A stretch of DNA of 52,432 nt, from contig CAYZVJ010000004.1 in assembly GCA_964481765.1 (NCBI GenBank), positions 1-52,432 on the forward strand, given 5' to 3'. Shown in pieces: positions 10,842-32,913 of this stretch. Source of the stretch: an uncultured Rikenellaceae bacterium (GTDB taxonomy: Bacteria > Bacteroidota > Bacteroidia > Bacteroidales > VadinHA17). Position 1 is the first letter of the stretch. Every line of letters begins with the position of its first letter. The notes under the pieces were generated by a model. It searched no databases. It worked only from the letters and a program-made list of their open reading frames with translations, and was not told the origin of the DNA. Made by a program: the position numbers and the translations under genes.

Positions 10842-10895
10842 ACTTCCTCTGTTTCAACAAACCGGGAATCCGGAGGACAGGAACCGGAACTCTGC

Positions 10896-11408: not shown

Positions 11409-11565
11409 TTTCGTTTGTTTTGTGAACTTTTCTAAATATAAAATCAATAATTGGAAACATGAAATAAATTGTTACATTTAAAACCGGCGTGAAAATTGAA
11501 TGACGATTTAGTGTGGGTGTTTATTTCAAAACAGATCCATACTTTAACTTGAACCAAAGACTTAA

Positions 11566-14500
11566 ATGACTGGTGATAAAAACTTGTGTAACAATATACT
11601 TGGTGTTGATATCGGTTCGGTATCCCTATCCGTAGTGCGGCTTGATTATTCCGGGAATATCCTGGATTACCACTACCTTTTTCACAAGGGGAATGTAAAG
11701 GGAACGTTAGCAACGCTGCAGGATAAAACAGACCTGTCAACGGTCCGGGCCATTGCATGTACCCGGGGGAGAGGGTATCAGTACAGATCTTGTCATCTTT
11801 ACGATCCACAGGTTGCGGTGATTGCAGCCGCTAAAAAGTTCCATGAAGATATCCGATCGATCCTCGTCGTAGGTGCCGAACGGTTCAGTCTGATCAAACT
11901 GGACAGATCCGGCACTTACCAATATACGAAAACCAATACATCCTGTGCTGCCGGGACAGGAAGTTTCCTTGATCAGCAGGCATTCAGGCTGGATTTTCCC
12001 GGGATTGAAGCCTTTTGCGAGGCCGCATTAAGCAACCGGTCCGACATACCGGAGATTGCATCACGATGCAGCGTTTTTGCCAAGACGGATCTGATCCATG
12101 CACAGCAACGGGGATATTCCCTCGAAGGCATCTGTGATGGATTGTGCAAAGGGCTGGCAAAAAACATTGTGGATACCCTGTTCAACAAGGAGTCTCCCTC
12201 CTCTCCGATCCTGTTTGCCGGCGGTGTTTCCAGGAATCTTGCAGTTCGGAAACACCTGGAGGAGCAGCTGGAGTGCAGGTTAGTACATCATGAACTGTCA
12301 CACCTTTACGGAGCGATTGGAGCAGGGTTGCTGCTGCTGGACAAGGAAATCCAGGAATCCATTGGACCGATCCACTCACTGGAGGAGATTCTGCCCCAGG
12401 AAAAGGAGCTGGAATATTTTCATGAACCACTTGATTTGCAACGAATTGCATGTCCGGATTTCAGAAGTAAAAACCAGTATGAGTACATTCCGGTTCATTC
12501 CGGACATACCGATAACATCGAGGTAGATCTTTATGTTGATCCCGCTGAAAACCAACCGATTTCGACTTATCTGGGAATCGATATCGGATCTACCAGCACC
12601 AAAGCGATCCTCACGGATGAAAAAAACATTCCCATGGCAGGATTTTACACCTATACTGCCGGGAAGCCGCTTGAGGCTGTCAAAGCTATCTTTGAATCCA
12701 TAGAGGAATTATCAAAAAGTAAAGGAATCCGGTTTATTTTCAACGGTGTTGGGACAACCGGATCGGGAAGGAAGTTTATTGGGAAGATCATTGGAGCAGA
12801 CAGGGATTTTGACGAGATCACAGCGCATGCACGGGCAGCATTTGAACTCAACCCAAATACGGATACCATCATAGAGATTGGCGGTCAGGATTCCAAATTT
12901 ACGATGATGCAGGATGGGATGGTGACCTTTTCGCAAATGAATACCGTTTGTGCTGCCGGAACCGGCAGCTTTATTGAAGAGCAGGCCAAAAAACTTGGTG
13001 TCTCCCTGTCCGATTATGCTGAAAAGGCCAAAGGGGTCCGGGCACCACTGGCAAGTGACCGTTGCACGGTATTCATGGAGCGGGATATCAATCAGCTCCT
13101 GAACCAGGGGTATGCTGTTAATGAGCTGCTTTCAACCGTACTCTTTTCCGTGGCTGAAAATTACCTGAAGAAGGTAGCTACAGAGGGATCGATTGGCGAT
13201 CACATCTGTTTCCAGGGAGCTACGGCAAAAAACAGGGCCCTGGTAGCTGCCTTCGAACAAAGACTGGGAAAGCCGATTTTTATTTCGAAATATTGTCATC
13301 TCACCGGTGCACTGGGAGTTGCCCTGCTACTGAATGATGAGGGAATCAAAACAACTGGTTTCAGAGGACTCAACCTCTATCATGAAGACATTCCCATCCG
13401 GAGTGAAACCTGCCAGCTCTGCTCAAACCACTGTCATATCAGCCTTGCTACTGTAAAGGATGAAACGGTTGCCTACGGCTTTCTTTGTGGAAGGGATTAT
13501 GACACGAAGAAATACGTGAAAAAAGATGCCGGCTTCCAGCTCCTGGAAGAGCGGAACAAAGCCATCCAGCGATCGCGAGCCGATAAAAAGAGGGTACGGA
13601 TTAAGATCGGTTTACCGGCTTCGCTGCATCTCTTTGAAGAATTAACATTGTGGGAGCACTTCTTCAGCAACCTTTCCATTGAAACCGTAAGCAGCGAACA
13701 TTTTGCCGAACCCGTTAAAACGGGGAAACGATTGGCCGGTGCAGAGTTTTGTGCTCCCATAAACGCTTTCTACGGGCACGTGGTATATCTTGCCGGAATG
13801 GTGGACTACATCTTCATTCCAGTCTACCTGGAAGCCAGGGAAAAACCAGCAAACCGGGAGAGAAACTTCTGCTACTACACCCAGTTCAGTGCTTCCCTGG
13901 TATACGCATTAAAAGAGAAAGGGATTGACAAGAAATGCCTCACACCCTTTATGGATGATCCAAAAGGATTGGCGCCTGTATCCCGCAAACTGTATGACTC
14001 ACTGAGTCCGGTTATTCCGGGATTAACCCTTTCACGGATTCGAAAGGCATACGAAGAGGCGATTCTTTTTAACACAGCACAGAAGCGTAACCTGGTGGAC
14101 CTCTTCCGGCACCGTTTCACACCAAAAGAGGAATTGTCGGTTGTACTGCTGGGCAGACCCTATGTTGTACTTTCCAAATCGTTGAATAAAGGGATACCCG
14201 ATATTTTTTCGGGCATGGGTATCGATACCTATTTCCAGGATATGATCCCCGCAGAAGATCAGGTTAACGGGGATAGCTACCTGCTGCAAAAAGTGCCCTG
14301 GCATTATGCTGCCAACATCCTGGAAACAGCCACAACGGTTGCAGCACGAAAAAACCTTTACCCCGTTCTGGTAACCGCTTTCAAATGTGCTCCGGATTCC
14401 TTTATGATTGAATATTTTAAGAAGATCATGAATGAGTACAAAAAGCCCTACCTGATCCTGCAGATTGACGAACACGATTCGAACGTGGGGTATGAAACAA

Positions 14501-15765
14501 GGATAGAAGCAGCTTTGCGATCATTCAGGAACCATGCCTCCAGGTACACCTTCCCTCCCTCCCCTGAACAAACCATAATCCTTCCACATGTTGATACAAA
14601 GATTAATGGAAAGACACTGTTGATGCCAAGCTGGGACAGCCTGGTGGCTCCACTTGTGGTAGCAAACCTGCGACGGATCGGCATCGATGCCCGGGTAATG
14701 GAATCAAGCCAGATGATCATTAAAAAAAGCATGGTACATAACACCGGCCAGTGCCTTCCCCTGAACATCATCACCCAGGAATTCATCGAGTACATTGAGA
14801 AGTACAACCTGAAACCGGAAAATACAATCCTGTGGATGATGGAGAGCAAGCTAAGCTGCAATCTGAGACAGTATCCCTATTATATGAAAAGCCTGCTGGA
14901 GTCATATGGTAAGGGGATGGAGAAAGCAGCAGTCTATTCCGGGAAACTGACCCATATCGAGATCTCATACAAAGCCACTTTTAATGCCTATTTCGCCTAC
15001 ATGCTTGGCGGGCTTCTCCGGAGTGTGGGATGCAAAGTCCGTCCGTATGAAATAGCAAAAGGAGCGACGGATAAAGCCATCAACAATAGCATTCCTATAC
15101 TTGAAAAGGCATTCCTGGGTGAACGATCAATGGACAGTGCGGTAGCCAAAGCAATGGAGCTGTTTAATGGCATAAAAACAAGAAATGGCAAAAGACCGAA
15201 AGTCGGGATTTTTGGTGATTTCTATGTCAGGGACAACGACATCATGAACCAGGATCTGATCCATGCCATTGAAGATGCAGGTGGTGAAGTAATCTCAACG
15301 CCCTACAGCGATTACACTAAAATAATCTTTGATAATGTCCTGCGGCGTGCCTTATCGCGTGGAGATTACCTGGAAGCAGGAATTTACCGAATACTGCTCA
15401 ATGTGTTGGAACTGGTTGACGAAAAATATTACAGGTATTTCAGGACCTACCTTGGTGAACGACCGGTGATCGACACGAAGAAACTGGAAAAAAATCTTAA
15501 ACTGTTCAATATCAACCCTTTCCATTCCGGAGAATCATACGATAACATCCTGAAGATCTTCTATATCATGGAAAATCATCCGGATATATCCCTCTTTATA
15601 CAAACAAATCCGGCATTTTGCTGTCCATCACTCGTAACCGAAGCCATGACACAGGAGATCAAGAGGATCACGGGCGTTCCGGTAGTTACATTAACGTATG
15701 ATGGAACAAGCGAATACAAGAATGACGTGATTGTGCCCTACCTGCAGGGAACGGACATCTCATAG
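11566..15765 (+). CDS. Fused acyl-CoA dehydratase activase-related protein: two BcrAD/BadFG/HgdC-type ATPase domains plus a dehydratase-component-like (DUF2229/HgdB-like) C-terminal half
   Basis: 1399 aa. Two ASKHA ATPase copies: ILGVDIGSVSLS with SCAAGTGSFLDQQ and RCSVFAKTD, then YLGIDIGSTSTKA with VCAAGTGSFIEEQ and RCTVFMERD. Cys motif CQLCSNHC follows. The long C-terminal region is typical of 'CoA-substrate-specific enzyme activase' giants. Confidence 0.85.
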   Translation: MTGDKNLCNNILGVDIGSVSLSVVRLDYSGNILDYHYLFHKGNVKGTLATLQDKTDLSTVRAIACTRGRGYQYRSCHLYDPQVAVIAAAKKFHEDIRSILVVGAERFSLIKLDRSGTYQYTKTNTSCAAGTGSFLDQQAFRLDFPGIEAFCEAALSNRSDIPEIASRCSVFAKTDLIHAQQRGYSLEGICDGLCKGLAKNIVDTLFNKESPSSPILFAGGVSRNLAVRKHLEEQLECRLVHHELSHLYGAIGAGLLLLDKEIQESIGPIHSLEEILPQEKELEYFHEPLDLQRIACPDFRSKNQYEYIPVHSGHTDNIEVDLYVDPAENQPISTYLGIDIGSTSTKAILTDEKNIPMAGFYTYTAGKPLEAVKAIFESIEELSKSKGIRFIFNGVGTTGSGRKFIGKIIGADRDFDEITAHARAAFELNPNTDTIIEIGGQDSKFTMMQDGMVTFSQMNTVCAAGTGSFIEEQAKKLGVSLSDYAEKAKGVRAPLASDRCTVFMERDINQLLNQGYAVNELLSTVLFSVAENYLKKVATEGSIGDHICFQGATAKNRALVAAFEQRLGKPIFISKYCHLTGALGVALLLNDEGIKTTGFRGLNLYHEDIPIRSETCQLCSNHCHISLATVKDETVAYGFLCGRDYDTKKYVKKDAGFQLLEERNKAIQRSRADKKRVRIKIGLPASLHLFEELTLWEHFFSNLSIETVSSEHFAEPVKTGKRLAGAEFCAPINAFYGHVVYLAGMVDYIFIPVYLEAREKPANRERNFCYYTQFSASLVYALKEKGIDKKCLTPFMDDPKGLAPVSRKLYDSLSPVIPGLTLSRIRKAYEEAILFNTAQKRNLVDLFRHRFTPKEELSVVLLGRPYVVLSKSLNKGIPDIFSGMGIDTYFQDMIPAEDQVNGDSYLLQKVPWHYAANILETATTVAARKNLYPVLVTAFKCAPDSFMIEYFKKIMNEYKKPYLILQIDEHDSNVGYETRIEAALRSFRNHASRYTFPPSPEQTIILPHVDTKINGKTLLMPSWDSLVAPLVVANLRRIGIDARVMESSQMIIKKSMVHNTGQCLPLNIITQEFIEYIEKYNLKPENTILWMMESKLSCNLRQYPYYMKSLLESYGKGMEKAAVYSGKLTHIEISYKATFNAYFAYMLGGLLRSVGCKVRPYEIAKGATDKAINNSIPILEKAFLGERSMDSAVAKAMELFNGIKTRNGKRPKVGIFGDFYVRDNDIMNQDLIHAIEDAGGEVISTPYSDYTKIIFDNVLRRALSRGDYLEAGIYRILLNVLELVDEKYYRYFRTYLGERPVIDTKKLEKNLKLFNINPFHSGESYDNILKIFYIMENHPDISLFIQTNPAFCCPSLVTEAMTQEIKRITGVPVVTLTYDGTSEYKNDVIVPYLQGTDIS

Positions 15766-18750: not shown

Positions 18751-19617
18751 TCAGAACCAGATCCTGGCAAGGTATCCGAACAGCATGGTAGTGAAAAAGG
18801 AGAATGAACCATAAACCACTGCAACAAGCGCCATTTCCTGACTTCCAAGCAGTGTGCTGGCTACAAAAATAGCCAACGTACTGTTCTGTAATCCAACTTC
18901 AACAGCAATCGTATACTGATTCTGTTTGGTCAGTCTGAAAAATCTAGGGACCAGCAGACCGGCTGTCATCGAAAAGAAATTCAGCATAAGAGCATATGGT
19001 ATCAGCCGGAAAAAATGGGAATCCAGTCCTGCCTCTCCATTGCCCTCAAGAAAAACAACCCCGGCATAGACACTCAACAGCAGCAGGGGTAAAATAATCC
19101 GCAATGGATTCTGTATCTTCAGTGCAAGCTCTTCGCGCTTCCTGCGGATATAAATACCAATGGATGCAGGAATAACGGTAATCATGAATATTTTTAAAAT
19201 GGTATCCAGCACCGGAAGCACAATTTCTGTATCCTCTCCCATATACACATGAAGTGCAAGCCGGACGATCAGGGGAATGGTTATCAGGGTGAGAATCCCG
19301 TTCACCACCGTGATGGAAACACAGAGGGCAACGTTACCCCGGATGATATAATTCACCAGGTTGGATGTTACTCCGCCAGGACAGGCAGAAATAATGATCA
19401 ACCCCACTTTAAACTCCGGTCTTATGTTGCTGAATGCAGCTATAAGAAAAGCAATCACTGGTAATAATATGAGCTGGCTTGCCAGTCCGACCACCAAATT
19501 CCGGGGTTCTGCAACAATGTTCCTGAGGTCACTGGTGGTTATGGATAATCCGATACCCATCATGATAATAACAAGGGTTGCAGGAAGGAACCAGGTTGAA
19601 AACAGATGGAGTTGCAT
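18751..19617 (-). CDS. Bile acid:sodium symporter (BASS/SBF) family transporter
   Basis: 288 aa, about 9-10 TM helices. Motifs such as ISACPGGVTSN and VEVGLQNSTLA match the SBF fold. Confidence 0.85.
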   Translation of the reverse strand: MQLHLFSTWFLPATLVIIMMGIGLSITTSDLRNIVAEPRNLVVGLASQLILLPVIAFLIAAFSNIRPEFKVGLIIISACPGGVTSNLVNYIIRGNVALCVSITVVNGILTLITIPLIVRLALHVYMGEDTEIVLPVLDTILKIFMITVIPASIGIYIRRKREELALKIQNPLRIILPLLLLSVYAGVVFLEGNGEAGLDSHFFRLIPYALMLNFFSMTAGLLVPRFFRLTKQNQYTIAVEVGLQNSTLAIFVASTLLGSQEMALVAVVYGSFSFFTTMLFGYLARIWF

Positions 19618-19739
19618 AACGGTAAAAAAATCCCAGCCAAAACAAAAAAAGAAACCTTGCGGTGGTTGGTTTGTTACCGGATAAAATTAACAGAAATTAT
19701 TTGTAATTTTAAAGATCATTAAAATCAGAGAGGCAAATT

Positions 19740-21263
19740 ATGATGAAAAGCCAGAAATACGGGATCATGGTATGTATCTTATTGATCTTTTTTCCTTTCT
19801 CCTGTACGTCACAAACAAACCAAAATCCAGCAGCCGGTTCGCAGAAACTGAAAAACAGGAATCCTATTGCTGCCGGTTCGTATTACCCGGCAAACCAGGC
19901 GCAGTTGACATCCCTTCTGGACGAGTGTATGGCACAAGCTGCACCGTGGAAAGTTTCCGGAGATGTCTTAGCGGTTCTTGTTCCCCATGCGGGATATGTT
20001 TTTTCAGGATCTGTAGCGGCATCCAGTTTTAACCAGATACCTAAAGAGATGAAATTTGATAACATTTTTATCATCGGATCAAGCCATCATGTTCTTTTCG
20101 ACGGCGCTTCAATATACAACCAGGGTCATTATATTACTCCCCTTGGAACGGTTCCTGTTAACCTGGAACTGGCAAATGATCTGATCAAGGCGCACGATTG
20201 CTTTGATTTTTTCCCGGAAGCTCATTCACAGGAGCACAGCATTGAGGTGCAGCTACCCTTCCTTCAGCACCATTTCACACACGAATTTCAAATTATTCCC
20301 ATTGTTATCGGCACCCAGGATGTCCAGCGATGCCGTGATATTGCGAAGGCACTTCTACCCTACCTCAACCCAAATAACCTCTTTGTTATCAGCACTGACT
20401 TCTCCCATTATCCCAGCTATGAAGATGCCGTCAAGGTTGACAGGAAAACCGCCTCCGCCATCCTGGCAAATACTCCGGAAGAGCTGATCAAAACCCTTCA
20501 GGAAAACGCCAGGGAAGGTATTCCCGGTTTGGTAACCAGCATGTGCGGGTGGTCATCCGTGCTTTCCCTGCTGTACATGACCGAGCACAGGAATGACATT
20601 AAGGTGTTTCACATTGACTATAAAAATTCCGGTGACACGGAATATGGTGATAAATCGAGGGTGGTCGGATATAATTCCATCTGTTTTACCCAGGATAAAG
20701 AAGAACCCTCAGCCTTTTACCTGGATGAAACAGACAAGCAAGAACTCCTGAAGATTGCCAGAAAAACGATTGAAGAATACGTGCTACACCAGCGGATTCC
20801 GGAATTCACTACCCGTGAGTATTCAAAGAACCTTCTCTCTCCTGCCGGAGCTTTTGTCACACTCCAGAAAAATGATGCCTTGCGCGGATGCATCGGTCAA
20901 TTTGAACCTGACCACCCCCTGTATGAGGTGGTCCGCGACATGAGCATCTCCTCCTCTACCCGCGATTACCGGTTCCCTCCGGTCACTTCCGATGAACTGT
21001 CTGATATTCATATTGAGATTTCGGTCTTATCACCGATGAAAAAAATTGAATCGGTCGATGAAATCGTTCTCGGAAAACACGGAATATACATTGTGCAGGG
21101 ATCACGATCCGGAACATTTCTCCCACAGGTTGCAACACAAACGGGATGGGACCTGGAAAATTTTCTTGGCCATTGCGCTAAAGATAAAGCCGGGATTGGA
21201 TGGGACGGATGGAAGGATGCTGATATCTATGTCTATGAAGCATTTGTTTTTGGAGAGAAATAA
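19740..21263 (+). CDS. amrB/amrA: Fusion of AmmeMemoRadiSam system protein B (MEMO1-like) and protein A (AMMECR1 domain), with a lipoprotein-type leader
   Basis: 507 aa. Memo motifs VPHAGYVFSG, HSQEHSIEVQLPFL, ISTDFSHY. C-terminal AMMECR1 motif GAFVTLQKNDALRGCIGQFEP. The N-terminus MMKSQKYGIMVCILLIFFPFSC looks like a lipoprotein signal. Confidence 0.85.
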   Translation: MMKSQKYGIMVCILLIFFPFSCTSQTNQNPAAGSQKLKNRNPIAAGSYYPANQAQLTSLLDECMAQAAPWKVSGDVLAVLVPHAGYVFSGSVAASSFNQIPKEMKFDNIFIIGSSHHVLFDGASIYNQGHYITPLGTVPVNLELANDLIKAHDCFDFFPEAHSQEHSIEVQLPFLQHHFTHEFQIIPIVIGTQDVQRCRDIAKALLPYLNPNNLFVISTDFSHYPSYEDAVKVDRKTASAILANTPEELIKTLQENAREGIPGLVTSMCGWSSVLSLLYMTEHRNDIKVFHIDYKNSGDTEYGDKSRVVGYNSICFTQDKEEPSAFYLDETDKQELLKIARKTIEEYVLHQRIPEFTTREYSKNLLSPAGAFVTLQKNDALRGCIGQFEPDHPLYEVVRDMSISSSTRDYRFPPVTSDELSDIHIEISVLSPMKKIESVDEIVLGKHGIYIVQGSRSGTFLPQVATQTGWDLENFLGHCAKDKAGIGWDGWKDADIYVYEAFVFGEK

Positions 21264-21284
21264 CGATTTCCTATAAGGGTATTC

Positions 21285-23822
21285 ATGAAAGCACCGTATG
21301 CTTTAATTCCGGTCATCATCCTGGTTTTGCTGGTATATAGCGCCTCCTTCCTGGCATCCCGGTTTTCCATTATCAAACGGAGTACCCATCGCAAATTCTG
21401 GAATTCACTGCTGCTATTAACCTTTTTTACCACTGCCTGCCTGGGACTGATCCTTGCCATTCAGGTTAACTATAAAATAAAGATCGGGATCATTGAGAAC
21501 ATCCTGGTCTGGCATGTAGATTTTGGTATTGCCCTGGCCGTAATAGCAATTTTTCATTTCTCCTGGCATCTGAAATACTATGCTGATTTGTTCAGGAAAT
21601 CCGGGAAAGGTGTGATCCCCTCACCGGATAAGCAACCGGATAATGGAGCTGTTTCCAGCTATGATTACCAGGGACTGTCGGAGATGCCCCTCAGGTGGAT
21701 TGTTGTCGTGCTTGGCTTATCGGCGATCATTACACAGGTTATTCTCCTCCGGGAATTCATGTCAACCTTTTACGGGAATGAGCTGGTTCTTGGAGTGGTG
21801 CTTTCCAACTGGATGATATTGACCGGACTCGGAGCTTTCCTTGGCCGGTTTTTATCCCGTTTCAGAAATGGAGTAAACCTGCTGTTCTTTTCATTGATCG
21901 CCATCGGGACATTGCCTCTTCTGACAGTCTTTCTTTTGAATGTTCTGAAGAACATTGTCTTCATTGAGGGAAGCATGGTTGGCCTGTTGCAGGTTTTTGC
22001 CTGGTCGGGCATTCTGCTAATTCCCTATTGCCTGCTCTCGGGATCACTTTTCACCTACCTTTCCCATCACGTCTCGCTGCTGGGCAAGGAGAACCTGATC
22101 TACCGGGTCTACAGCCTTGAGGCTATAGGAAGTGTTCTGGGCGGGATTCTCTTCAATTTTATCCTGGTCTTTTTCCTGAAAACCTTTCAGAGCCTCTTTA
22201 TCCTGCTCACCATAAACCTGTTTTTTGCCATGCGGTTTTTTCCTGGCAGAAGAAAACCACTCATCCTTTTACCGGTAACGACTTTCTGGGTATTTATGTT
22301 AATCGCTTCATTTTTTCTGGACCTTGATGTATTCACAAAGCAACGGTTATTCAGAAACCAGGAACTTGTTTACCTGAAAGAGACACCTTATGGAAATCTG
22401 GCCATTACAAAAACGGGTGAACAGTTTAATTTTTATGAAGACTATGTTTTATTATTCAATACATTAAATCCGATTGCCAATGAAGAGAATGTCCACTATG
22501 CCATGGTTCAGCATCCGGATCCGAAGTCTGTTTTGGTCATTTCCGGAGGGATCTCCGGGATGCTGGATGAAATATTGAAATACCCGGTTGAGCGCATTGA
22601 CTATGTGGAGATTAATCCGTGGCTGGTAAGGGCGGCAAGAGAACATTTACATTTCAATGTTGATCAAAAAGTTCATATTTACCACCAGGATGCGCGGCTC
22701 TTCATCAGGCGTTCTTCTGAAAAATATGATGTCATTCTCATCCATGCTCCACCTCCCGGCACGGCACAAACGAATCGTTATTACACCTGTGAATTTTTTC
22801 TCGAGCTGAAAAAGTCACTCACCCCTTCCGGTATTGTTGCCCTGGCACTGCCCTCTACCATGAATTATATCAGCGAAGAGGCAGCCGAAGTCCTTTCGAT
22901 CACCTACAACACGCTGAATGAAGTATTTACATACGTTGATATAATACCTGGTGAACAGAATTTTTTCCTTGCCTCGGAAGAAAAGATCAGCCTTCAAATA
23001 GCAAAGCGGATTGAAGAGAAGGGCATAGAGAATGAGTATGTCAATCAGTATTATATTGATGACCAGCTTCTTCAGGCAAGGAGGAACACGATCATGCAGT
23101 CACTCGATCCGGAAGCAGAGCTGAATCTCGATTTTACTCCCCGTGCCTATTTGAAACAGATCGTGTTCTGGCTTAGCTATTTTGATTTCAACTACTGGTT
23201 CATCTGGATACCCCTTTTCATCCTGATCCCCATACTCATCGTGCGATGGAATCCCATACAGACAGGCATGTTTACCTGTGGTTTCAGTGCTTCTGCCATT
23301 GAAATACTGTTGCTCATTGCATTTCAGATTTTGTATGGATACGTTTATCAGGTAACGGGCATCATCATTACGCTCTTCATGGCAGGATTGGCTGCAGGTC
23401 CCTACCTGCAAAGAAAGATCCTTCCGGGAGCAATGCCTGGACAGCTGACTGCCGTTCAGATCCTGATCGGTATATTTGCTATGATCCTTCCCTTCCTGTT
23501 CCTTCTGTTCAGGATCATGGATCCGGGATCCGGTCTGACACATGCTCTCTTTTTCCTGCTAACCTTTCTGATCTCAGTCCTTACCGGGATATTCTTTTCG
23601 CTGGCTACTACCCTGATGAAAGGCAATGTTTTACAGGTTGCATCGGGTTTGTACGGATCAGATCTGATCGGGTCTGCTCTGGGTGCCTTGCTGGTGGCAG
23701 CCCTTTTGTTTCCTTTGCTTGGTTTGATCAAGGTAGCTCTGCTGATCGGTGTTTTAAACTTTATCGCAGCTCTGTTTATCTGGTTACGGAGGAAACGCCT
23801 TTCCGATAATTTTGTAACTTAG
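21285..23822 (+). CDS. Polytopic membrane protein with a central spermidine-synthase-like (class I SAM/aminopropyltransferase fold) domain
   Basis: 845 aa, with many TM helices on both sides of a soluble core. Core motifs: VLVISGGISGMLDEILKYP, IDYVEINPWLV, YDVILIHAPPPGTAQTNRYYTCEFF. This architecture is commonly annotated as 'fused MFS/spermidine synthase'. The gaps to both neighbouring genes are 21 nt. Confidence 0.75.
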   Translation: MKAPYALIPVIILVLLVYSASFLASRFSIIKRSTHRKFWNSLLLLTFFTTACLGLILAIQVNYKIKIGIIENILVWHVDFGIALAVIAIFHFSWHLKYYADLFRKSGKGVIPSPDKQPDNGAVSSYDYQGLSEMPLRWIVVVLGLSAIITQVILLREFMSTFYGNELVLGVVLSNWMILTGLGAFLGRFLSRFRNGVNLLFFSLIAIGTLPLLTVFLLNVLKNIVFIEGSMVGLLQVFAWSGILLIPYCLLSGSLFTYLSHHVSLLGKENLIYRVYSLEAIGSVLGGILFNFILVFFLKTFQSLFILLTINLFFAMRFFPGRRKPLILLPVTTFWVFMLIASFFLDLDVFTKQRLFRNQELVYLKETPYGNLAITKTGEQFNFYEDYVLLFNTLNPIANEENVHYAMVQHPDPKSVLVISGGISGMLDEILKYPVERIDYVEINPWLVRAAREHLHFNVDQKVHIYHQDARLFIRRSSEKYDVILIHAPPPGTAQTNRYYTCEFFLELKKSLTPSGIVALALPSTMNYISEEAAEVLSITYNTLNEVFTYVDIIPGEQNFFLASEEKISLQIAKRIEEKGIENEYVNQYYIDDQLLQARRNTIMQSLDPEAELNLDFTPRAYLKQIVFWLSYFDFNYWFIWIPLFILIPILIVRWNPIQTGMFTCGFSASAIEILLLIAFQILYGYVYQVTGIIITLFMAGLAAGPYLQRKILPGAMPGQLTAVQILIGIFAMILPFLFLLFRIMDPGSGLTHALFFLLTFLISVLTGIFFSLATTLMKGNVLQVASGLYGSDLIGSALGALLVAALLFPLLGLIKVALLIGVLNFIAALFIWLRRKRLSDNFVT

Positions 23823-23843
23823 ACGCCGGGAAAAGGATGCGGA

Positions 23844-24983
23844 ATGGATAAAAGGAAATTCATCAAGCAGGGGATACTGGGGACCGGCGCGTTGTGCTGC
23901 CTTCCACGCATTACTTCCGGTAATCTTTTATCGGACAAGGAACCGGGGAAATCCCTGTCCGAGAAACTCCCAAAAGGGAGCAGGGAAGCCATGTATTATG
24001 AAGTGACTCCGCGTGGTGTAAAATGCATGATCTGTCCCAACGAATGCACACTGAAACTGGATGAATTGAGCGATTGCCATAACAGGATAAACAAAGACGA
24101 TAAACTCTATACCATGGCATATGGCAATCCATGTGCCATTAACATTGATCCCATTGAGAAGAAACCGTTGTACCATTTTCTTCCGGGAAGCAGAGCTTTT
24201 TCAATTGCCACGGCCGGGTGCAACCTTGCCTGCCTGAATTGTCAGAACTGGACCATCTCACAGGTCAGTCCAACGGAAACCCGGAACTATGACCTGATGC
24301 CTGACCGGGTGGTGACTGAAAGTCTTGATAACCATTGCGAATCGATCGCATATACCTATTCCGAACCCATTACCTTTTACGAATACACACTCGATTCTGC
24401 CAGGATAGCCCGTGAGAAAGGGATCAGGAACGTGATGGTCTCTGCCGGCTATATAAACGAAGAACCACTACGCAACCTGGCTCCCTATATCGATGCAGCG
24501 AACATTGATCTGAAATCGTTCAAAGAGAGTATCTATCTGAAGCTGAATGCAGGAAAGCTTCAGCCTGTGCTGGACACACTGAGAATTTTGCTGGAGGAGA
24601 AGGTATGGCTTGAGATCACCAATCTGATTGTACCTAACTGGACCGATGATTTTGACATGATCCGGGAGATGTGCGAATGGTTGTATGCAAACGGATTTCA
24701 GGATTGTCCTCTCCATTTCAGCCGGTTTCATCCCATGTATAAACTAACCCAACTGCCACCCACCCCGGTGGCCACCCTGGACAAAGCGAGAGAAATTGCA
24801 CTTCAATCCGGGATCCGTCATGTCTATATCGGAAATGTGCCCGGAACAAAAGCCAGCAATACCATTTGCCCTGCATGCAAAAAAATCCTGGTGGAAAGGC
24901 GGGGCTACCTGATTGCATCCAACAAGATAAAAGACGGCAAATGCACCTATTGCAATGAACCCATAGCCGGAGTCTGGAGTTAA
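23844..24983 (+). CDS. amrS: AmmeMemoRadiSam system radical SAM enzyme
   Basis: 379 aa. N-terminal CxxCPxxC (KCMICPNEC). Radical SAM CX3CX2C (GCNLACLNCQNW). C-terminal Cys pairs CPACKK and GKCTYCNEPIAGVW. Tat-like leader MDKRKFIKQGILGTGALCCLP. Confidence 0.85.
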   Translation: MDKRKFIKQGILGTGALCCLPRITSGNLLSDKEPGKSLSEKLPKGSREAMYYEVTPRGVKCMICPNECTLKLDELSDCHNRINKDDKLYTMAYGNPCAINIDPIEKKPLYHFLPGSRAFSIATAGCNLACLNCQNWTISQVSPTETRNYDLMPDRVVTESLDNHCESIAYTYSEPITFYEYTLDSARIAREKGIRNVMVSAGYINEEPLRNLAPYIDAANIDLKSFKESIYLKLNAGKLQPVLDTLRILLEEKVWLEITNLIVPNWTDDFDMIREMCEWLYANGFQDCPLHFSRFHPMYKLTQLPPTPVATLDKAREIALQSGIRHVYIGNVPGTKASNTICPACKKILVERRGYLIASNKIKDGKCTYCNEPIAGVWS

Positions 24984-24992
24984 TGCATTCCC

Positions 24993-25511
24993 ATGAATAT
25001 TCAAGAACAATTGGAAGTGGAGCTTTCCAGGTGGAACACGGATCTTGTTTCGGAATATGTTGGAGCAGATCGGGAGCGGTTTTACGAATTGTGGAATCTG
25101 CTGCTACCCGAGAAATATCCCGTCTCACCCAGGACAGCCTGGGTGCTCGAATTCCTCTGTGAAAAAAACCCACACCTGTTAAAACCCTATCTGGATGAAT
25201 TGCTCAATGCGCTTCCCGGAATAATACATCATGGGATTAAGCGCCATATGATGAAGATCCTTACCTTCCAGGAGATCCCCGAAGAACACCTGGGCAACCT
25301 GATTGATCTCTGCTTCCGGTGGATCGAAGATACTGAAATACCCGTTGCTGTGAAAGTGCACTCCATGCAGATCATTTACAATGCAATCCAGCAGTTCCCT
25401 GAACTTAAAGCTGAATTTATTGCTGTTGTGGAGGACCAGATTCCTAAGAACTCACTGGGATTCAAGTCACGAGCGAGAAGGCTAATCGCTAAACTGCAGA
25501 ATATTTCCTGA
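24993..25511 (+). CDS. Hypothetical all-helical (HEAT/ARM-like) protein, last gene of the Amme operon
   Basis: 172 aa. Starts 9 nt after the amrS stop on the same strand. Helical repeat-like sequence; I recognise no family. Confidence 0.5.
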   Translation: MNIQEQLEVELSRWNTDLVSEYVGADRERFYELWNLLLPEKYPVSPRTAWVLEFLCEKNPHLLKPYLDELLNALPGIIHHGIKRHMMKILTFQEIPEEHLGNLIDLCFRWIEDTEIPVAVKVHSMQIIYNAIQQFPELKAEFIAVVEDQIPKNSLGFKSRARRLIAKLQNIS

Positions 25512-25677
25512 TTTCTGACCATCGGTCAGACGGAATGAAGCCGTCAGACCGAACCAAATTAACAGGATCCGAATCAACACAATGAAATTAACCCGCATTA
25601 TTCATTAATAATCCGGGTTAATGGGTTGATTTCGCTGCGTCAGAGGGATTTATCCCGTGCAACCTTTGCAATATAGG

Positions 25678-26598
25678 TCAAATCAGGCAATCTTCCGTCC
25701 AACCCAGTTTTATCAGTTCAATCTTTTCCGGATCAGCCGTTCCCAGCTTGTGGCGGGTATCTGCCAGAAGAATATGTTTTGCCGGCGGATTCAGCGGTCT
25801 CTCCTCTCCAAAGTGCTCCTTTCGTTTCGCCTGCAGTATGCGAACCCCAACAGAATCTACGGCTACCGGATCGAAACCGACCAGCAATCCCTTGTATTCC
25901 CAGGTAAACTCCTTATTGAAGTGATGTCTTCCAACTCCATGAAAAAGAGGATTTAACATAACAAGAATATTCAACCTGGTTTTGCCTTCCACCACGGGCA
26001 ATCTCCAGAGGGTGGCAAGATCAGCACAGGAGTCGCCATGGAGTGATGATGGATTTGGAATAAACATGATGTAGTTCTTAAGCAGGGATCCCACACCAGA
26101 CCAGGCGTGTGTTCTCAGCGGTCGGGTATTGATCAGTGCAGTACTGTTCTGAAAGACCGGATCACTGATAATGCCCCGGTCCTTGATGCTGATGTTTTTT
26201 TCCTCCACTCCCATATCCATAACACGCTGCTTTATAGCCTGTTCGAGCTCGGGAGGTGTAGGCATGTAGGACCAAACATTCGATTTAATTCCAACGATAT
26301 CATCCGGTTTTATCAGTTTTTTCCAGGCATCCAGATAGTCTTTTTCATCCGTTAATGCCATAACTGCCTGATCCAGCATGGATTGAATTTTACCCGGGAA
26401 GGGTTTATTGTACCCTGTCAACAGATCCTTATCACGGATCAGTACAACCCGTGTCTTCTCTCCGGCCCCTGTTTCAGGAAATGCGGAAGAGAGGGCTTCT
26501 GCTGTTTGTCCCGATCGGGAAAAATAGAGAAACCCGCCAATGGAGGCAAGGGCACTTCTCTTAAGAAGCGTTCGTCTTGTTATCGGTTTCCGGTTCAT
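25678..26598 (-). CDS. Tat-signal protein, DUF362-like
   Basis: 306 aa. Canonical twin-arginine leader MNRKPITRRTLLKRSALASIGGF. The body (..VVLIRDKDL..IKPDDIVGIKSNVW..) resembles DUF362. Family assignment is from memory only. Confidence 0.6.
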   Translation of the reverse strand: MNRKPITRRTLLKRSALASIGGFLYFSRSGQTAEALSSAFPETGAGEKTRVVLIRDKDLLTGYNKPFPGKIQSMLDQAVMALTDEKDYLDAWKKLIKPDDIVGIKSNVWSYMPTPPELEQAIKQRVMDMGVEEKNISIKDRGIISDPVFQNSTALINTRPLRTHAWSGVGSLLKNYIMFIPNPSSLHGDSCADLATLWRLPVVEGKTRLNILVMLNPLFHGVGRHHFNKEFTWEYKGLLVGFDPVAVDSVGVRILQAKRKEHFGEERPLNPPAKHILLADTRHKLGTADPEKIELIKLGWTEDCLI

Positions 26599-26622: not shown

Positions 26623-27540
26623 TCAATCTTTTGCAGATAAATAGGTATTCTGTGCCCTGTCGAGCATTGTTTCAACCGCTTCTTTTGTGTCGCCATTGAA
26701 CACACAGATTAACAGCTTCTGGTCAACGCGACTACCTGTCCATTTCCCATCCTCCAGTTCAACAGCCTGTTTATCCTCCAGTTCAGGTGCGTATTGATGC
26801 AAAAAATTCCGGTAGGCTTCACTGGCTTTATCTGCATTCTCATAGTGGATCAACAGGAGGTAATAGCGTGCATCCGGTGGTCCGTATTTTGCCAGTACCG
26901 CATCGGTTTTGTCATCGATGTTTAAAAAATTATCATCAGAAATATAGTAAAATGCATTTACCCAGACATAGTGGTGAAAGTAAAAGACACTTTCCGGAGC
27001 CAGGTCTTCTTCCGGTATCCATCTCACTATTTCCGGCAATTCTCCCTCCTCTTTTATTTTTTTATCAATTTTATGAGCCATTGCTTCCATCGCTTTCTCA
27101 GTCATGGAGGTTTGGTAATTACACACGATGGAAACATAGTAGGAGCCCTTCCAGAACAGGATCGCTCCCCGATAGATTTGGCAGCCCTGTCCATAGGTAT
27201 CATCCAGCTTTTCGCGTCCGTGACAATGTAAACCAAATGCATTTTTCGGTTCAACCATATCAAAAATCTCAACCTGGATATCCGGTTGCCCTGATCTTCT
27301 GTAGGTCCGGCTGATAACCCGTTCAAATCCATAGGATATGAAAAGTTCAGCCCCTCCGTCTATGTAATCATACAGGGTCTCCGGATAATAGTAACGGTCC
27401 TGGCCCAGGGCCTCCCATTCGTTGATTGCTTTGGGTAAAAAATCGCCGAGAATTTGTGCTGAAGTGGACATGATCGGAATAAAAAATAACAGAATAATGA
27501 AACGAACTGCTTTGCTGGATGAGATTATACGGTTCATCAT
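26623..27540 (-). CDS. Secreted hypothetical protein, partner of the DUF362-like gene
   Basis: I prefer the internal start MMNRIISSSKAVRFIILLFFIPIMSTSAQ (signal peptide). 24-nt gap to the downstream DUF362-like gene. The LYDYIDGGAELF motif is recalled from a DUF family that I cannot name with certainty. Confidence 0.6.
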   Translation of the reverse strand: MMNRIISSSKAVRFIILLFFIPIMSTSAQILGDFLPKAINEWEALGQDRYYYPETLYDYIDGGAELFISYGFERVISRTYRRSGQPDIQVEIFDMVEPKNAFGLHCHGREKLDDTYGQGCQIYRGAILFWKGSYYVSIVCNYQTSMTEKAMEAMAHKIDKKIKEEGELPEIVRWIPEEDLAPESVFYFHHYVWVNAFYYISDDNFLNIDDKTDAVLAKYGPPDARYYLLLIHYENADKASEAYRNFLHQYAPELEDKQAVELEDGKWTGSRVDQKLLICVFNGDTKEAVETMLDRAQNTYLSAKD

Positions 27541-27765
27541 ACGGACTTCAATGGCTAACGGTAACGGAACAAGAATTACTCTAAACATGCCAGGACAATA
27601 CCCGGTACGGGTGGTGTTGAGACACCCATAAAAATAAGAAAAAAATTGTTTTTGTCATTTTTATTTCTTTCCATTTATACAACAAAATAACATAAAGTGA
27701 CGTGATTTTGTTCACTCCCACCGTAAAAATAGTGTCTAAATAAGGGATGTCGGATTATGGAAGGA

Positions 27766-28256: not shown

Positions 28257-29246
28257 ATGGGGCATACTATGAAGGTTGCGGTTACCGGAGCCAGCGGACA
28301 CATTGGATCGAACCTGGTCAGGGAACTGATCAGGAAAGGTCATCAGGTACGGGTTTTATATCATGAGGATAACCGTGGTTTTGAGGGATTACCCGTGGAA
28401 GCAATACAGGGTAGTATGAATGATCAGGATGCCCTGACACGACTCGTGACCGGTACGGATATTGTCTTTCATCTTGCTGCACAGATCTCCATTAACGGCA
28501 AGAACGACAAACGTTTGCTGGATAAAAACATCGAAGGCACAAGGAATATTATTGAGGCGATCCGTCGTTCCGGAAACATGCGGTTGATCCATTTCAGTTC
28601 CATACATGCCCTCGAACACGAACCGCTCGATCAGGTTCTGGATGAGAACCGGCCTCTTGCACTGACAGACCCAATCTATTATACTCAAAGCAAAGCATAC
28701 AGTGAACAAATTGTACTTAAAGCAGTTACGAATGGACTGGATGCTATCATCCTGAATCCCACGGCAGTCATCGGGCCATTCGATTTTAAGCCATCTCTTA
28801 TGGGTCAGGCAATTGTTCGTTTTTACAAAGGAAGACTACCCGCGCTTATCCCTGGAGGTTATGACTGGGTCGATGTGCGGGATGTTGTTCAGGCTGCGAT
28901 CAATGCAACGACAAAGGGAAAGACCGGTAAACGCTACATCTTATCCGGGCAGTGGAAAACCATCAAAACACTGGGTCAGGAAGTACATTATCTCGGAGGC
29001 AGAAAAATTCCCTGCATTCGGGTTCCATTCTGGCTGGCTATAGCGGCTGTACCCCTATTCAGGTTGCTGGCCTGGCTTTCAGGAAGAATTCCGTTATACA
29101 CCTATGAATCGCTGCACATCATCAAAAACGGGAATCCGGCCATCAGCAGTTTGCTGGCGCGGAATGAGCTTAATTACCAGCCCAGACCCTTCGAGGGAAC
29201 CGTAAAGGATACTGTTGCATGGTACAGGGAGAACGGATATATCTAG
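28257..29246 (+). CDS. NAD(P)-dependent epimerase/dehydratase (extended SDR, dihydroflavonol-reductase-like)
   Basis: 329 aa. Rossmann motif VTGASGHIGSNLVRELIRKGHQV. Catalytic YxxxK (YTQSKAY). Confidence 0.9.
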   Translation: MGHTMKVAVTGASGHIGSNLVRELIRKGHQVRVLYHEDNRGFEGLPVEAIQGSMNDQDALTRLVTGTDIVFHLAAQISINGKNDKRLLDKNIEGTRNIIEAIRRSGNMRLIHFSSIHALEHEPLDQVLDENRPLALTDPIYYTQSKAYSEQIVLKAVTNGLDAIILNPTAVIGPFDFKPSLMGQAIVRFYKGRLPALIPGGYDWVDVRDVVQAAINATTKGKTGKRYILSGQWKTIKTLGQEVHYLGGRKIPCIRVPFWLAIAAVPLFRLLAWLSGRIPLYTYESLHIIKNGNPAISSLLARNELNYQPRPFEGTVKDTVAWYRENGYI

Positions 29247-29260
29247 TTCAGGGAGTTGCC

Positions 29261-30019
29261 ATGGAGAACAACCGGTATGAATTATTTAATGTTATCTGGA
29301 TCGCTTTTGCCCTGATCCTGTTTCCCATCCTTCTGAAAACAACAATGCCCTATGGAAGGCATACCAATAAGGATTGGGGAATGACCGTTCCCAACAGGCT
29401 CGGATGGATTATAATGGAGTTTCCTGCCTTGCTTGTCTTTGCCTATTTTTTCTGCAATTCTCCAGCAAAAGAACGGGGTATAAGCTGGATCTTTCTCCTG
29501 CTGTGGGGGTTTCATTATCTGAATCGGTCTCTCATATTCCCCCTCAGGCTCAGGACAACCGGGAAAGCAATGCCGGTTGTGATCATGACACTGGCCATAT
29601 TTTTCAACCTGGTGAACGGATACCTCAACGGGTACTATCTTGGTAACGTAAAACCACTCTACCCAACTTCCTGGCTCTGGGATATCCGGTTTATCCTGGG
29701 AATAATACTGTTTATCGGGGGACTGGTGATTAACTGGTTGTCCGACACAATACTGATTGAACTCCGGAAAGACTCCCGGAATGGGTATTCCATTCCCCGG
29801 GGGTTCCTGTTTGACTACATCTCCTGTCCCAATTTTTTTGGAGAGATCATCGAATGGATTGGTTTTGCACTGATGACATGGAGTTTACCGGCCTTCGCTT
29901 TTGCACTGTGGAGTTTTACAAACCTTGTTCCAAGAGCACTTGATCACCACCGCTGGTACCACCGGACATTTGAAACATACCCGAAAAGCCGGAAAGCAAT
30001 CATTCCTTATATTCTGTAG
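29261..30019 (+). CDS. 3-oxo-5-alpha-steroid 4-dehydrogenase / steroid 5-alpha-reductase family membrane protein
   Basis: I prefer the start MENNRYELF at 29261, 15 nt after the SDR stop. Polytopic. Hallmark C-terminal region FDYISCPNFFGEIIEWIGFAL ... HRWYHRTFETYPKSRKAIIPYIL. Confidence 0.85.
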   Translation: MENNRYELFNVIWIAFALILFPILLKTTMPYGRHTNKDWGMTVPNRLGWIIMEFPALLVFAYFFCNSPAKERGISWIFLLLWGFHYLNRSLIFPLRLRTTGKAMPVVIMTLAIFFNLVNGYLNGYYLGNVKPLYPTSWLWDIRFILGIILFIGGLVINWLSDTILIELRKDSRNGYSIPRGFLFDYISCPNFFGEIIEWIGFALMTWSLPAFAFALWSFTNLVPRALDHHRWYHRTFETYPKSRKAIIPYIL

Positions 30020-32124: not shown

Positions 32125-32913
32125 TTATAGGAGGAGTTTCAATCCTTGTTTTGCCTTGTTTTTTACGGATTCATAGGTAGTTTCATCGGCTATCAGTTTT
32201 TCCATCACCGGTACGGATGCTTTCTCATTGAGGTTAACCATCATATTGATCATGGAGATCTGGATGATGGGATCCGTTTGCAGGCTAAATGATTTCACCA
32301 GTTCTTCCCGGATTTCCGGTACTCCGGCATACCGTGAAAGTGCTTCAAGGGCCGCGAGTCTCACATTTTCGCTCTTATCCCCGTTAAGGGAGAGGAACAG
32401 GGCTTCTCTCAGTTCCGGTTCCAGGCGGTCCAACTCTTCAGAAATATTGACCGCCATGATTCGTTTGCTCGCCGAAGATTGTTTGAGCATGCTGAGGATC
32501 ATCATGTTCTTTGTCTCCCTGACTTCTTTCTGCAGTGCTATGATCTGCTCTTCCTCTATTCCGGGTTTTGAGAGCAGTTGCCCGCCGAAATAACCCAGTA
32601 CAAAGAATAGGATTGAGGCGGCCACGGTCAGGGGCAGAATACGTTTCCATCCAACATAGGATCTTTCCGAACCCAGTAACATAATCCGTTTCCGTTCACT
32701 GTCAATAAATTCCACAAAATCATTCTTCAGGTTTTCATCGGGATCTTCAAAGGGTATCTGGGCAATGAATTCTTCTAACCGGAGTGATTCTTCAAGTTTT
32801 TTATGACAATCCTTGCAGGAGGAAAAATGATCATCCATTGCTTTTCTCGTCTCTTCCGGAAGCATCCCTGATAAATAGGCTTCCAGGTTATTTACAATAT
32901 CGTTACAGTTCAT
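32125..32913 (-). CDS. Anti-sigma factor (zf-HC2) with one TM and a periplasmic HEAT-repeat-like domain
   Basis: 262 aa. N-terminal HFSSCKDCHKKL (HxxxCxxC). TM LPLTVAASILFFVLGYFGG. C-terminal helical repeats (..RLAALEALSRYA..). 4-nt start/stop overlap with the sigma gene. Confidence 0.75.
   Translation of the reverse strand: MNCNDIVNNLEAYLSGMLPEETRKAMDDHFSSCKDCHKKLEESLRLEEFIAQIPFEDPDENLKNDFVEFIDSERKRIMLLGSERSYVGWKRILPLTVAASILFFVLGYFGGQLLSKPGIEEEQIIALQKEVRETKNMMILSMLKQSSASKRIMAVNISEELDRLEPELREALFLSLNGDKSENVRLAALEALSRYAGVPEIREELVKSFSLQTDPIIQISMINMMVNLNEKASVPVMEKLIADETTYESVKNKAKQGLKLLL

Follow-up and report, generated by a model that had tools for sequence, protein, structure and literature searches.

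The 52,432-nucleotide window analysed here (contig CAYZVJ010000004.1 of assembly GCA_964481765.1, from an uncultured Rikenellaceae bacterium) carries a compact cluster of genes of the AmmeMemoRadiSam system, that is, of the AMMECR1 homologue AmrA, the Memo homologue AmrB and the radical S-adenosylmethionine (SAM) enzyme AmrS. Four open reading frames (ORFs) on the plus strand, at 19740-21263, 21285-23822, 23844-24983 and 24993-25511, encode proteins of 507, 845, 379 and 172 amino acids (aa), in that order, and are separated by gaps of 21, 21 and 9 nucleotides (nt), just as the original prediction had them; the Amr trio lies on one strand and occupies no more than 5.3 kb. The first gene is a fused amrBA, the third is amrS, and between them lies the gene of a membrane protein with a domain of spermidine synthase (SpeE) fold, which is the main concern of this report. 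These three genes and their parts, with residues numbered in each product, are:

19740-21263, plus strand: amrBA, encoding a signal followed by Memo/AmrB and AMMECR1/AmrA domains
19740-19805, plus strand: Sec/lipoprotein-type signal of AmrBA, residues 1-21 and Cys22 (sequence motif)
19857-20687, plus strand: Memo/AmrB domain, residues 40-316 (TIGR04336)
20742-21251, plus strand: AMMECR1/AmrA domain, residues 335-504 (TIGR04335)
21285-21596, plus strand: N-terminal module of the 845-aa protein with three transmembrane (TM) helices, residues 1-104; H35, H77, H91 and H95 invariant
21681-22313, plus strand: first 6-TM repeat and extra helix TM10, residues 133-343 (AlphaFold2 (AF2) model, positive-inside rule, HHalign)
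22347-23177, plus strand: SpeE-fold (class I SAM-dependent) domain, residues 355-631 (PF01564, 66.7 bits; Foldseek)
23196-23804, plus strand: extra helix TM11 and second 6-TM repeat, residues 638-840 (AF2 model, positive-inside rule, HHalign)
23844-24983, plus strand: amrS, encoding a Tat-type signal and a radical SAM core
23844-23924, plus strand: Tat-type signal of AmrS, about residues 1-27, MDKRKFIKQGILGTGALCC (conserved motif)
24012-24977, plus strand: radical SAM core of AmrS, residues 57-378 (TIGR04337)

A check with hidden Markov models (HMMs) bore out the predicted Amr assignments, all three of which exceed their NCBIfam cutoffs: AmrB scores 248.7 bits against TIGR04336 (cutoff 26), with residues 40-316 covering profile positions 1-270 of 270; AmrA scores 171.1 bits against TIGR04335 (cutoff 99) over residues 335-504; and AmrS scores 369.6 bits against TIGR04337 (cutoff 220), in a match that begins at residue 57, past the signal. 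The corresponding Pfam scores are 207 bits for Memo, 175.3 for AMMECR1, 56.2 for Radical_SAM and 66.7 for Spermine_synth. The motifs PHAGY, SSHH, DFSHY, CGW, LRGCIG and DYRF are present in the AmrBA translation, those that define AmrA being RGCxG and DxRF (PMC2034487), and the cluster motif CNLACLNC (CX3CX2C) of AmrS, at C126/C130/C133, is invariant among 14 orthologues. The 845-aa protein, of which hundreds of full-length relatives exist, passes the NCBIfam model NF037959 for a "fused MFS/spermidine synthase" (57.5 bits, cutoff 40; MFS, major facilitator superfamily). By every criterion tested, the cluster is thus a member of the AmmeMemoRadiSam family, and its membrane protein is a member of NF037959. 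The AmrB-AmrA fusion, which had been called atypical, is in fact the rule in this clade and near-universal in the wider census, and has been in print since 2007 (PMC2034487), when AMMECR1 was described as fused to a neighbouring dioxygenase gene and linked to a radical SAM enzyme (PMC2034487).

To place the cluster among its relatives, two censuses were made. The first, taken from the side of the membrane protein, covered the best 80 of 535 loci in a one-genome-per-species collection and comprised metagenome-assembled genomes (MAGs) of Bacteroidota, Ignavibacteriota, KSB1 and Terriglobia; the second, taken from the side of AmrS, covered 80 metagenome loci with AmrS identities of 39-71%. Both keep the 80 best matches and are biased accordingly towards relatives of the query, and contig ends limit many loci. 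In the first census, a fused amrBA lies within 3 kb of the SpeE-like gene in 50 of the 60 loci with sufficient upstream sequence, amrS lies within 3 kb of it in 46 of the 57 with sufficient downstream sequence, and both do so in 32 of 41 informative loci. The amrBA gene is on the opposite strand in 13 loci, which indicates that the linkage survives rearrangement. Clustering of all ORFs of the 80 loci turned up no other conserved neighbour family. In the second census, SpeE-like genes at 24-54% identity occur in at least four gene orders: BA-SpeE-S, S-SpeE, S-BA-SpeE(-) and DUF362-S-SpeE. The genes for AmrBA, the membrane SpeE-like protein and AmrS are a conserved three-gene module across several phyla. 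The central idea of the original prediction, a membrane protein acting as partner of the Amr trio and linking it to the envelope, is therefore supported by the census (50/60 for amrBA, 46/57 for amrS, with linkage kept through changes of gene order).

The same census had been proposed for the fourth gene, and here it gave the opposite answer: the membrane gene is conserved beside amrS, whereas the HEAT-like gene is not. This gene encodes a 172-aa protein of alpha-solenoid (HEAT/ARM-like) fold by fold prediction (24993-25511, plus strand). NCBIfam and Pfam scans found no significant family match for it, the best repeat model being HEAT_ECM29 at E = 0.24, but its structural model is an all-alpha solenoid of 10 helices with a predicted local distance difference test (pLDDT) score of 95.3, and all of its top Foldseek matches are HEAT/ARM proteins (template-modelling score (TM-score) against the query up to 0.71, best E = 0.016). 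The HEAT-like description therefore holds at the level of the fold and fails as a claim of membership in the system: only 22 homologues occur in 5.8 billion proteins, and the gene is absent from 78 of the 80 first-census loci. The closest relative (L002) is the only one with the gene beside amrS; L015 has it 3.3 kb upstream of amrBA, and three distant homologues lie in unrelated contexts. We thus rejected it as a fourth component and regard it as a lineage-local neighbour, although it is probably co-transcribed with the cluster.

Both Amr products of the window begin with what look like export signals. That of AmrBA is a Sec-type (general secretory) signal with a lipobox-like cysteine (FFPFSC-TSQ), located ahead of the start of the HMM match at residue 40; AmrBA signals have typical n, h and c regions, and ...SC(N/K/S)SQ is kept in homologues. 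A signal peptide is present on AmrBA in 32 of 33 second-census loci, including some in which AmrS is signal-less. From its sequence, AmrBA is probably exported by Sec, as a lipoprotein. The AmrS signal of the window reads D-K-R-K-F-I-K followed by GILGTGALCC, with K-R in place of the R-R of a canonical signal for twin-arginine translocation (Tat). About 55 AmrS orthologues share the order [ST]-K-R-x-F-[IL]-K, Gly-rich hydrophobic stretch and conserved LWKWSKEALFY; R4 and F6 are invariant in the orthologue alignment, and K-R replaces R-R in about 51 of 55 signals from Bacteroidota and Ignavibacteriota. Other lineages and phyla carry canonical twin-arginine signals on AmrS (DRRTFLK, NRRDFLK, SRRRFLK), and it is because these distant AmrS have the R-R form that we read the K-R segment as a Tat signal. 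Natural K-R Tat signals exist in Salmonella TtrB and in the plastid Rieske protein. The hydrophobic regions of Bacteroidota AmrS signals end in a conserved cysteine (GALCC, GGIAC, GGLAC), which may mark a Tat-dependent lipoprotein.

The AmrS family comprises 1390 representative clusters at E <= 1e-30, and we classified the best 150 by their N-termini. No extension is present in 62, and 20 are signal-less fusions (14 of them AmrS-AmrA-AmrB); 28 are of Tat type, 12 have long N-terminal extensions (10 with TM segments), three have a hydrophobic N-terminus and two are triple fusions that carry a signal or anchor at the N-terminus (P0267, P0279), leaving 23 that are partial or unclear. Exported or membrane types make up 46 of 133 representatives. 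On a neighbour-joining tree of the 133 AmrS cores, the exported/cytoplasmic label changes five times, compared with a mean of about 37 and a minimum of 29 when labels are shuffled, which indicates that exported AmrS are real lineages and not start-codon artefacts. Within the long extensions, sequence inspection placed AmrS behind signal peptides and large secreted-type domains, as in P0269 and P0270. It also placed AmrS behind CcdA/DsbD-like multi-cysteine domains or NosR/NapH-like modules in P0265, P0274, P0276, P0280 and P0283, the NosR/NapH-like modules having an FMN-binding domain and CxxxCP membrane motifs; such modules are membrane electron-transfer units that could reduce an AmrS in the envelope. 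AmrS proteins of about 1030-1150 aa were candidates for Rosetta-stone fusions with the SpeE-like protein, but were rejected as such, since they turned out to be triple fusions of AmrS, AmrA and AmrB that lack a signal.

The second census contains Tat-type, a few Sec- or TM-like, and signal-less AmrS N-termini, and the membrane gene is distributed unevenly among them. Signal classes were set by simple motif and hydrophobicity rules, and a few misclassifications are visible. Of 45 Tat-type amrS genes, 26 have a SpeE-like gene no more than 4 kb away, compared with only 4 of the 28 that lack a signal (odds ratio 8.2, p = 2.4e-4); at least two of these four exceptions have doubtful start codons. 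Where at least 4 kb is available on both flanks of a Tat-type amrS, 12 of 18 loci have the SpeE-like gene. Conversely, six loci (L097-L099, L124, L128, L158) combine a signal on AmrBA with an adjacent signal-less AmrS and lack a SpeE-like gene. Because the gene is missing where only AmrBA has a signal, the membrane protein appears to follow the location of AmrS and not the export of AmrBA. In these six loci the two proteins would occupy different compartments, a hint that a signal-less AmrS may work on AmrBA while it is still an unexported precursor, or on an intermediate that is transported. L134 is an exception to the Tat association: at 9781-13695 it encodes a 1304-aa SpeE-like protein (24% identity, with an extra 450-600 residues) beside a signal-less AmrS and a signal-bearing AmrBA.

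These patterns bear on an arrangement in which the whole system faces the cytoplasm: the N-terminal stretches would be tethers or mis-called starts, TM10 and TM11 would not span the membrane, and the SpeE-fold domain and AmrS would use cytoplasmic SAM at the inner face. SAM and reductants are generally cytoplasmic, signal-less AmrS does occur beside signal-bearing AmrBA, and in P0265 and P0274 AmrS is fused after multi-TM domains via linkers rich in lysine and arginine (K/R-rich), which suggest that it lies in the cytoplasm. However, a Tat consensus that includes RRxFLK is kept across phyla ahead of a Gly-rich h-region, AmrBA signals show both the regular n/h/c organization and a lipobox-like cysteine, and the fusions in P0269 and P0270 put AmrS behind secreted-looking domains, so we regard a cytoplasm-facing system as unlikely, a judgement that the topology of the membrane protein, with its very hydrophobic TM10 and TM11 and an alternation of charge that is consistent from both termini, reinforces.

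In the AF2 model of the 845-aa protein (pLDDT 84.7; predicted TM-score (pTM) 0.80), three N-terminal helices and seven further ones precede the soluble domain at about 355-631, and seven more follow it, for a total of 17. Among 80 relatives, the mean number of lysines plus arginines (K+R) per loop before the domain is 6.6, 0.04, 2.25, 0.03, 2.42, 0.40 and 2.56, and past the domain 1.07, 0.01, 2.57, 0.41, 1.65, 0.25 and 2.34. Loops assigned as inside (1.07-6.6) alternate with those assigned as outside (0.01-0.41), in agreement from both termini, and the positive-inside rule applied from both ends predicts that the SpeE-fold domain is outside. TM10 and TM11, which flank the domain, rank among the most hydrophobic segments. 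The membrane part falls into two homologous halves of parallel orientation (TM4-9 match TM12-17; HHalign 96.9%, E = 1.4e-10), and both 6-TM repeats begin from an inside loop. Structurally, the core would thus correspond to an MFS-like 6+6 arrangement plus two extra central helices that hold the SpeE-fold domain. R156-E157 and N165-E166 are invariant, at the outer face of the membrane domain. The N-terminal module is present in 39 and absent from 41 of 80 homologues and has no family or Pfam match; its four histidines (H35, H77, H91, H95) are kept in 72 of 72 sequences that have the module, and could bind haem or a metal, perhaps as a point at which electrons enter.

The soluble domain has the complete SpeE fold: the best 50 Foldseek matches of the 845-aa model are all SpeE, the best being 1uir_B (E = 1e-11, TM-score against the target 0.69). 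Its active site departs from that of SpeE in a consistent way. The ribose-binding glutamate (E442) and the adenine-binding aspartate (D469) are each kept in 80 of 80 relatives. Position 423, the acid of GGG[DE]G, is isoleucine, leucine or valine in 79 of 80, and position 487, the first and catalytic aspartate of DxxDP, is asparagine in 60, glutamine in 6, histidine in 5 (as in the window protein) and aspartate in only 4 of 80. The same signature holds in a distant set of 27 Amr-linked homologues at 24-54% identity, where position 423 is hydrophobic in 23 and position 487 is asparagine in 16. A further signature, E/D490-P491...T-A-Q-x-N497-R498-[YF]-[YF], is conserved, with an invariant N497-R498 at positions without counterpart in SpeE. 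In plant enzymes, the motif-I aspartate holds the amine of decarboxylated SAM (dcSAM) and repels the carboxylate of SAM (PMC3725402). Since the adenosyl-binding residues are kept and the motif-I acid is lost, the domain should bind an adenosyl compound, and more likely SAM than dcSAM.

It is therefore very improbable that the 845-aa protein is an ordinary membrane polyamine aminopropyltransferase that stands next to the Amr genes by inherited synteny. Its best HMM matches by E-value are indeed polyamine aminopropyltransferase models (PRK03612, E = 8e-50), and relatives are named "spermidine synthase", but it misses all aminopropyltransferase equivalog cutoffs widely (NF002956, 169.7 of 472 bits; NF002010, 97.2 of 260; TIGR00417, 77.6 of 249.55), two essential residues are replaced, and the linkage persists over phyla and rearrangements and is tied to Tat-type AmrS. 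Of the class I SAM/aminopropyltransferase core that had been proposed for this protein, the SpeE fold and the adenosyl-binding residues stand; aminopropyl transfer, with the cutoffs missed and both the dcSAM-contacting acid and the catalytic aspartate replaced, appears unlikely from the sequence.

The active site is also where the main competing explanation enters, which comes close to the original prediction's own idea. By analogy with putrescine N-methyltransferase (PMT) or METTL13, the SpeE-fold domain might be an active SAM-dependent methyltransferase working on an envelope substrate of AmrBA and AmrS, with the membrane domain presenting or flipping a lipid, polyamine or other molecule. 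PMTs have isoleucine at the position of the motif-I acid, and a D103I replacement abolished spermidine synthase activity and conferred SAM-dependent methyl transfer (PMC3725402). The acid-to-isoleucine change is thus the very one that steers a spermidine synthase to methylation, the SpeE fold is full with its adenosyl-binding residues intact, the E/D490-P491...N497-R498 signature resembles an active-site loop under selection, the SpeE-fold methyltransferase METTL13 is a weak profile match, and conserved charged residues (R156, E157, N165, E166) lie within the membrane domain. However, the general base common to spermidine synthases and PMTs (D173; PMC3725402) is asparagine in most members of the family, the gene follows the Tat signal of AmrS and not the export of AmrBA, and SAM would still have to get to the outer face. 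We consider this explanation doubtful, though a genuine contender.

The reading we prefer, at a rough probability of 55%, is that the window encodes an envelope-facing variant of the Amr system in which the adenosyl cofactor of an exported AmrS is managed by the membrane partner. Actual export, the transport or hand-over of SAM, the electron source and the chemistry are the parts that we infer. AmrB-AmrA would be exported through Sec, probably as a lipoprotein; AmrS would gain its iron-sulphur (Fe-S) clusters in the cytoplasm, be exported or anchored by its Tat-type signal, and act on the outer side of the inner membrane. The carrier part of the 845-aa protein would move SAM outward, or return 5'-deoxyadenosine and methionine inward, while the SpeE-fold domain would hold the adenosyl cofactor next to AmrS, whose 5'-deoxyadenosyl radical would modify AmrBA or an envelope substrate bound to it. 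Possible leads to the electron source are the His-rich module and, elsewhere, the fusions of AmrS to NosR/NapH-like and CcdA-like modules. In its most specific form, AmrS would be an extracytoplasmic radical SAM enzyme, the MFS-like/SpeE-fold protein would be dedicated to exporting SAM and handing it over to AmrS, or else would import 5'-deoxyadenosine and methionine for salvage, and the Memo-AMMECR1 lipoprotein would be a substrate or co-catalyst on the envelope; we advance this version as a possibility, tentatively. If true, it would, to our knowledge, be without precedent both as radical SAM chemistry outside the cytoplasm and as a bacterial supply of SAM to the periplasm.

Several observations weigh against an envelope-facing system with a cofactor-handling partner. 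We are aware of no demonstration that a radical SAM enzyme functions beyond the cytoplasm, nor is SAM or a low-potential reductant known to occur in that space. The K-R pair of the window signal is a weaker Tat motif than R-R, and in P0265 AmrS follows a CcdA-like membrane domain through a K/R-rich, cytoplasmic-looking linker, so some membrane-associated AmrS need not be outside. Linkage is incomplete: neither Amr gene is near the SpeE-like gene in 4 of 41 first-census loci, and 6 of the 18 well-flanked Tat-type amrS loci have no SpeE-like gene nearby. The designation "MFS-like" derives from the NCBIfam name and the internal repeat; neither TM half has a Pfam match at E <= 1, and the family profile finds no transporter in the PDB at E <= 10. 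The conserved acidic E/D490 and invariant N497-R498 suggest that the domain could be a catalyst and not a holder of cofactor. Finally, all the organisms are uncultured MAGs, and everything computed here was obtained by analysing sequences and predicting structures: gene content and linkage, signal motifs, topology, the lost catalytic residues and the tie to Tat-type AmrS.

The flanks and the regulatory features of the cluster are as follows:

18751-19617, minus strand: SBF-family transporter gene, divergent from amrBA
19618-19739, plus strand: AT-rich 122-nt region between the divergent genes, presumed promoter (role inferred)
23787-23805: terminator-like hairpin with T-rich tail, inside the 3' end of the membrane-protein ORF
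23807-23814: exact -7 box TAATTTTG, inside the membrane-protein ORF, 30 nt before amrS
about 25522-25552 and 25587-25622: two strong hairpins in the 166-nt gap between convergent genes
25678-26598, minus strand: DUF362-family protein with Tat signal TRRTLLK (PF04015, 24.7 bits, cutoff 24)
26623-27588, minus strand: DUF6599 protein (PF20244, 115.2 bits), the usual partner of DUF362

With 21, 21 and 9 nt between them, the ORFs are too close for separate promoters to fit in the gaps, and the spacing suits a single transcription unit. Scans for signals stayed at chance level for sigma-70 promoters (12 against 11.2 expected, with a consensus unsuited to Bacteroidota) and for intrinsic terminators (4 against 6.6), and copies of the Bacteroidetes -7 box TAnnTTTG show no enrichment (27 against 37 expected), with no exact one falling within 19618-19739. 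The hairpin and the TAATTTTG box at 23787-23814 could be an internal regulatory signal. The predicted RNA fold of the 166-nt gap reaches -56.7 kcal/mol (z = -4.76, with 0 of 200 shuffles as stable), and the hairpins at 25522-25622 are probable transcript ends. One public metatranscriptome yielded sparse coverage, with four short pieces from a related strain, none of which spans a gene junction.

The DUF362/DUF6599 pair was considered as a core component and downgraded. In 18 of the 80 second-census loci, a DUF362-like paralogue is the immediate upstream neighbour of amrS, on the same strand; 15-16 of these loci carry a twin-arginine Tat-type AmrS, and four of them (L123, L125, L126, L130) have no SpeE-like gene despite good flanks. 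These amrS-adjacent proteins are only 24-34% identical to the window copy, whose own subfamily is 61-66% conserved across phyla and occurs as a DUF6599-DUF362 pair without nearby Amr genes in 3 of 3 distant genomes; the signal of the window copy uses R-R, unlike that of the window AmrS. The DUF362 family is thus a possible accessory of exported Amr systems, to which the window pair is at best loosely linked. Neither the DUF362 fold nor the TM fold has a sequence match among solved structures.

Elsewhere in the window, an overlapping gene pair at 28257-30019 encodes an NAD-dependent epimerase/3-beta-hydroxysteroid dehydrogenase-like protein and a membrane protein of the 3-oxo-5-alpha-steroid 4-dehydrogenase family (PF02544, 197.7 bits); in this Bacteroidales MAG, the two together look like steroid or polyprenol reductases. 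A 1399-aa protein encoded at 11566-15765 combines a pair of BcrAD/BadFG ATPase stretches with a DUF2229 "CoA enzyme activase" domain and resembles a giant activase of the 2-hydroxyacyl-CoA dehydratase type. At 32125-33455 (minus strand), a gene for a sigma factor of the extracytoplasmic function (ECF) type is followed by one for an anti-sigma-like protein in which a zf-HC2 domain is combined with HEAT_2 repeats. The closest genome is an uncultured Rikenellaceae MAG with 95% amino-acid identity over the 845-aa protein, and salt-marsh sediment metagenomes contain matches to the window.

The AmmeMemoRadiSam trio is among the best-conserved sets of enzymes without known function, and its human homologues AMMECR1 and MEMO1 are linked to disease. 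The literature searched describes no function of the trio or of the membrane family, and no exported radical SAM enzyme. The main earlier survey of Memo contexts, by Burroughs et al. in 2019, reportedly links Memo in its abstract to the modification of nucleotide bases and aliphatic isoprenoids. AMMECR1 was listed in 2019 as a top-priority uncharacterised archaeal family (PMC6393860), and a preprint of 2026 still terms an AMMECR1-domain protein functionally uncharacterised. The variant described here adds a predicted envelope location and a fourth, specifically associated component. Should the predicted topology prove right, the supposed confinement of radical SAM chemistry to the cytoplasm would be called into question, and there would be a handle on the roles of the Memo and AMMECR1 domains; should it prove wrong, the conserved linkage would still identify a partner protein.

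Compared with the canonical AmmeMemoRadiSam system, the cluster is alike in having three domains near full profile length, clustered genes, and the CX3CX2C, RGCxG/DxRF and Memo His/Asp/Cys motifs. It differs in two respects: the canonical trio has no signals, whereas here AmrBA bears a Sec/lipoprotein signal and AmrS a Tat-type one, and there is an extra, fourth conserved component, the MFS-like/SpeE-fold membrane protein. As far as we can tell, an exported Amr system, its pairing with this protein and the predicted outward topology are new, although Burroughs et al. may already mention the neighbour.

AmrS is, like Tat-exported Fe-S proteins, an enzyme that carries Fe-S and bears near its N-terminus [ST]-[KR]-R-x-F-L-K with an h-region of low hydrophobicity. 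Because Fe-S proteins have to be folded when they are exported, Tat is a better fit for AmrS than Sec; known Tat Fe-S substrates are redox subunits, and we know of no radical SAM enzyme established among them. Another precedent is offered by the anaerobic sulfatase-maturing enzymes, radical SAM proteins that modify exported proteins before export. They are a model for loci such as L097-L099, in which a cytoplasmic AmrS may modify a precursor that is then exported by Sec. In contrast, the window AmrS has an export signal of its own and is PflA-like, not SPASM-type; because it carries that signal, modification, if any, would happen outside.

The SpeE-fold domain shares with SpeE (PDB 1UIR, 1JQ3, 3O4F) the whole fold, including the N-terminal beta-domain, the ribose glutamate and the adenine aspartate, and with plant PMT the replacement of the motif-I acid (isoleucine there; isoleucine, leucine or valine in the window family). 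SpeE and PMT both keep the catalytic aspartate, whereas the window family mostly has asparagine, and, unlike either, its domain sits inside a protein of 14 or 17 TM helices and is predicted to be periplasmic. The closest likeness in architecture, multiple TM helices plus a SpeE fold, is to NF037959 and to the PRK03612-type membrane homologues of SpeE; no functional study of the fused MFS/SpeE family NF037959 was found in the literature searched. What is new beyond NF037959, as far as we can tell, is the link to the Amr genes, the predicted outward topology, the 6+6 repeat with the domain carried on two helices, and the His-rich module.

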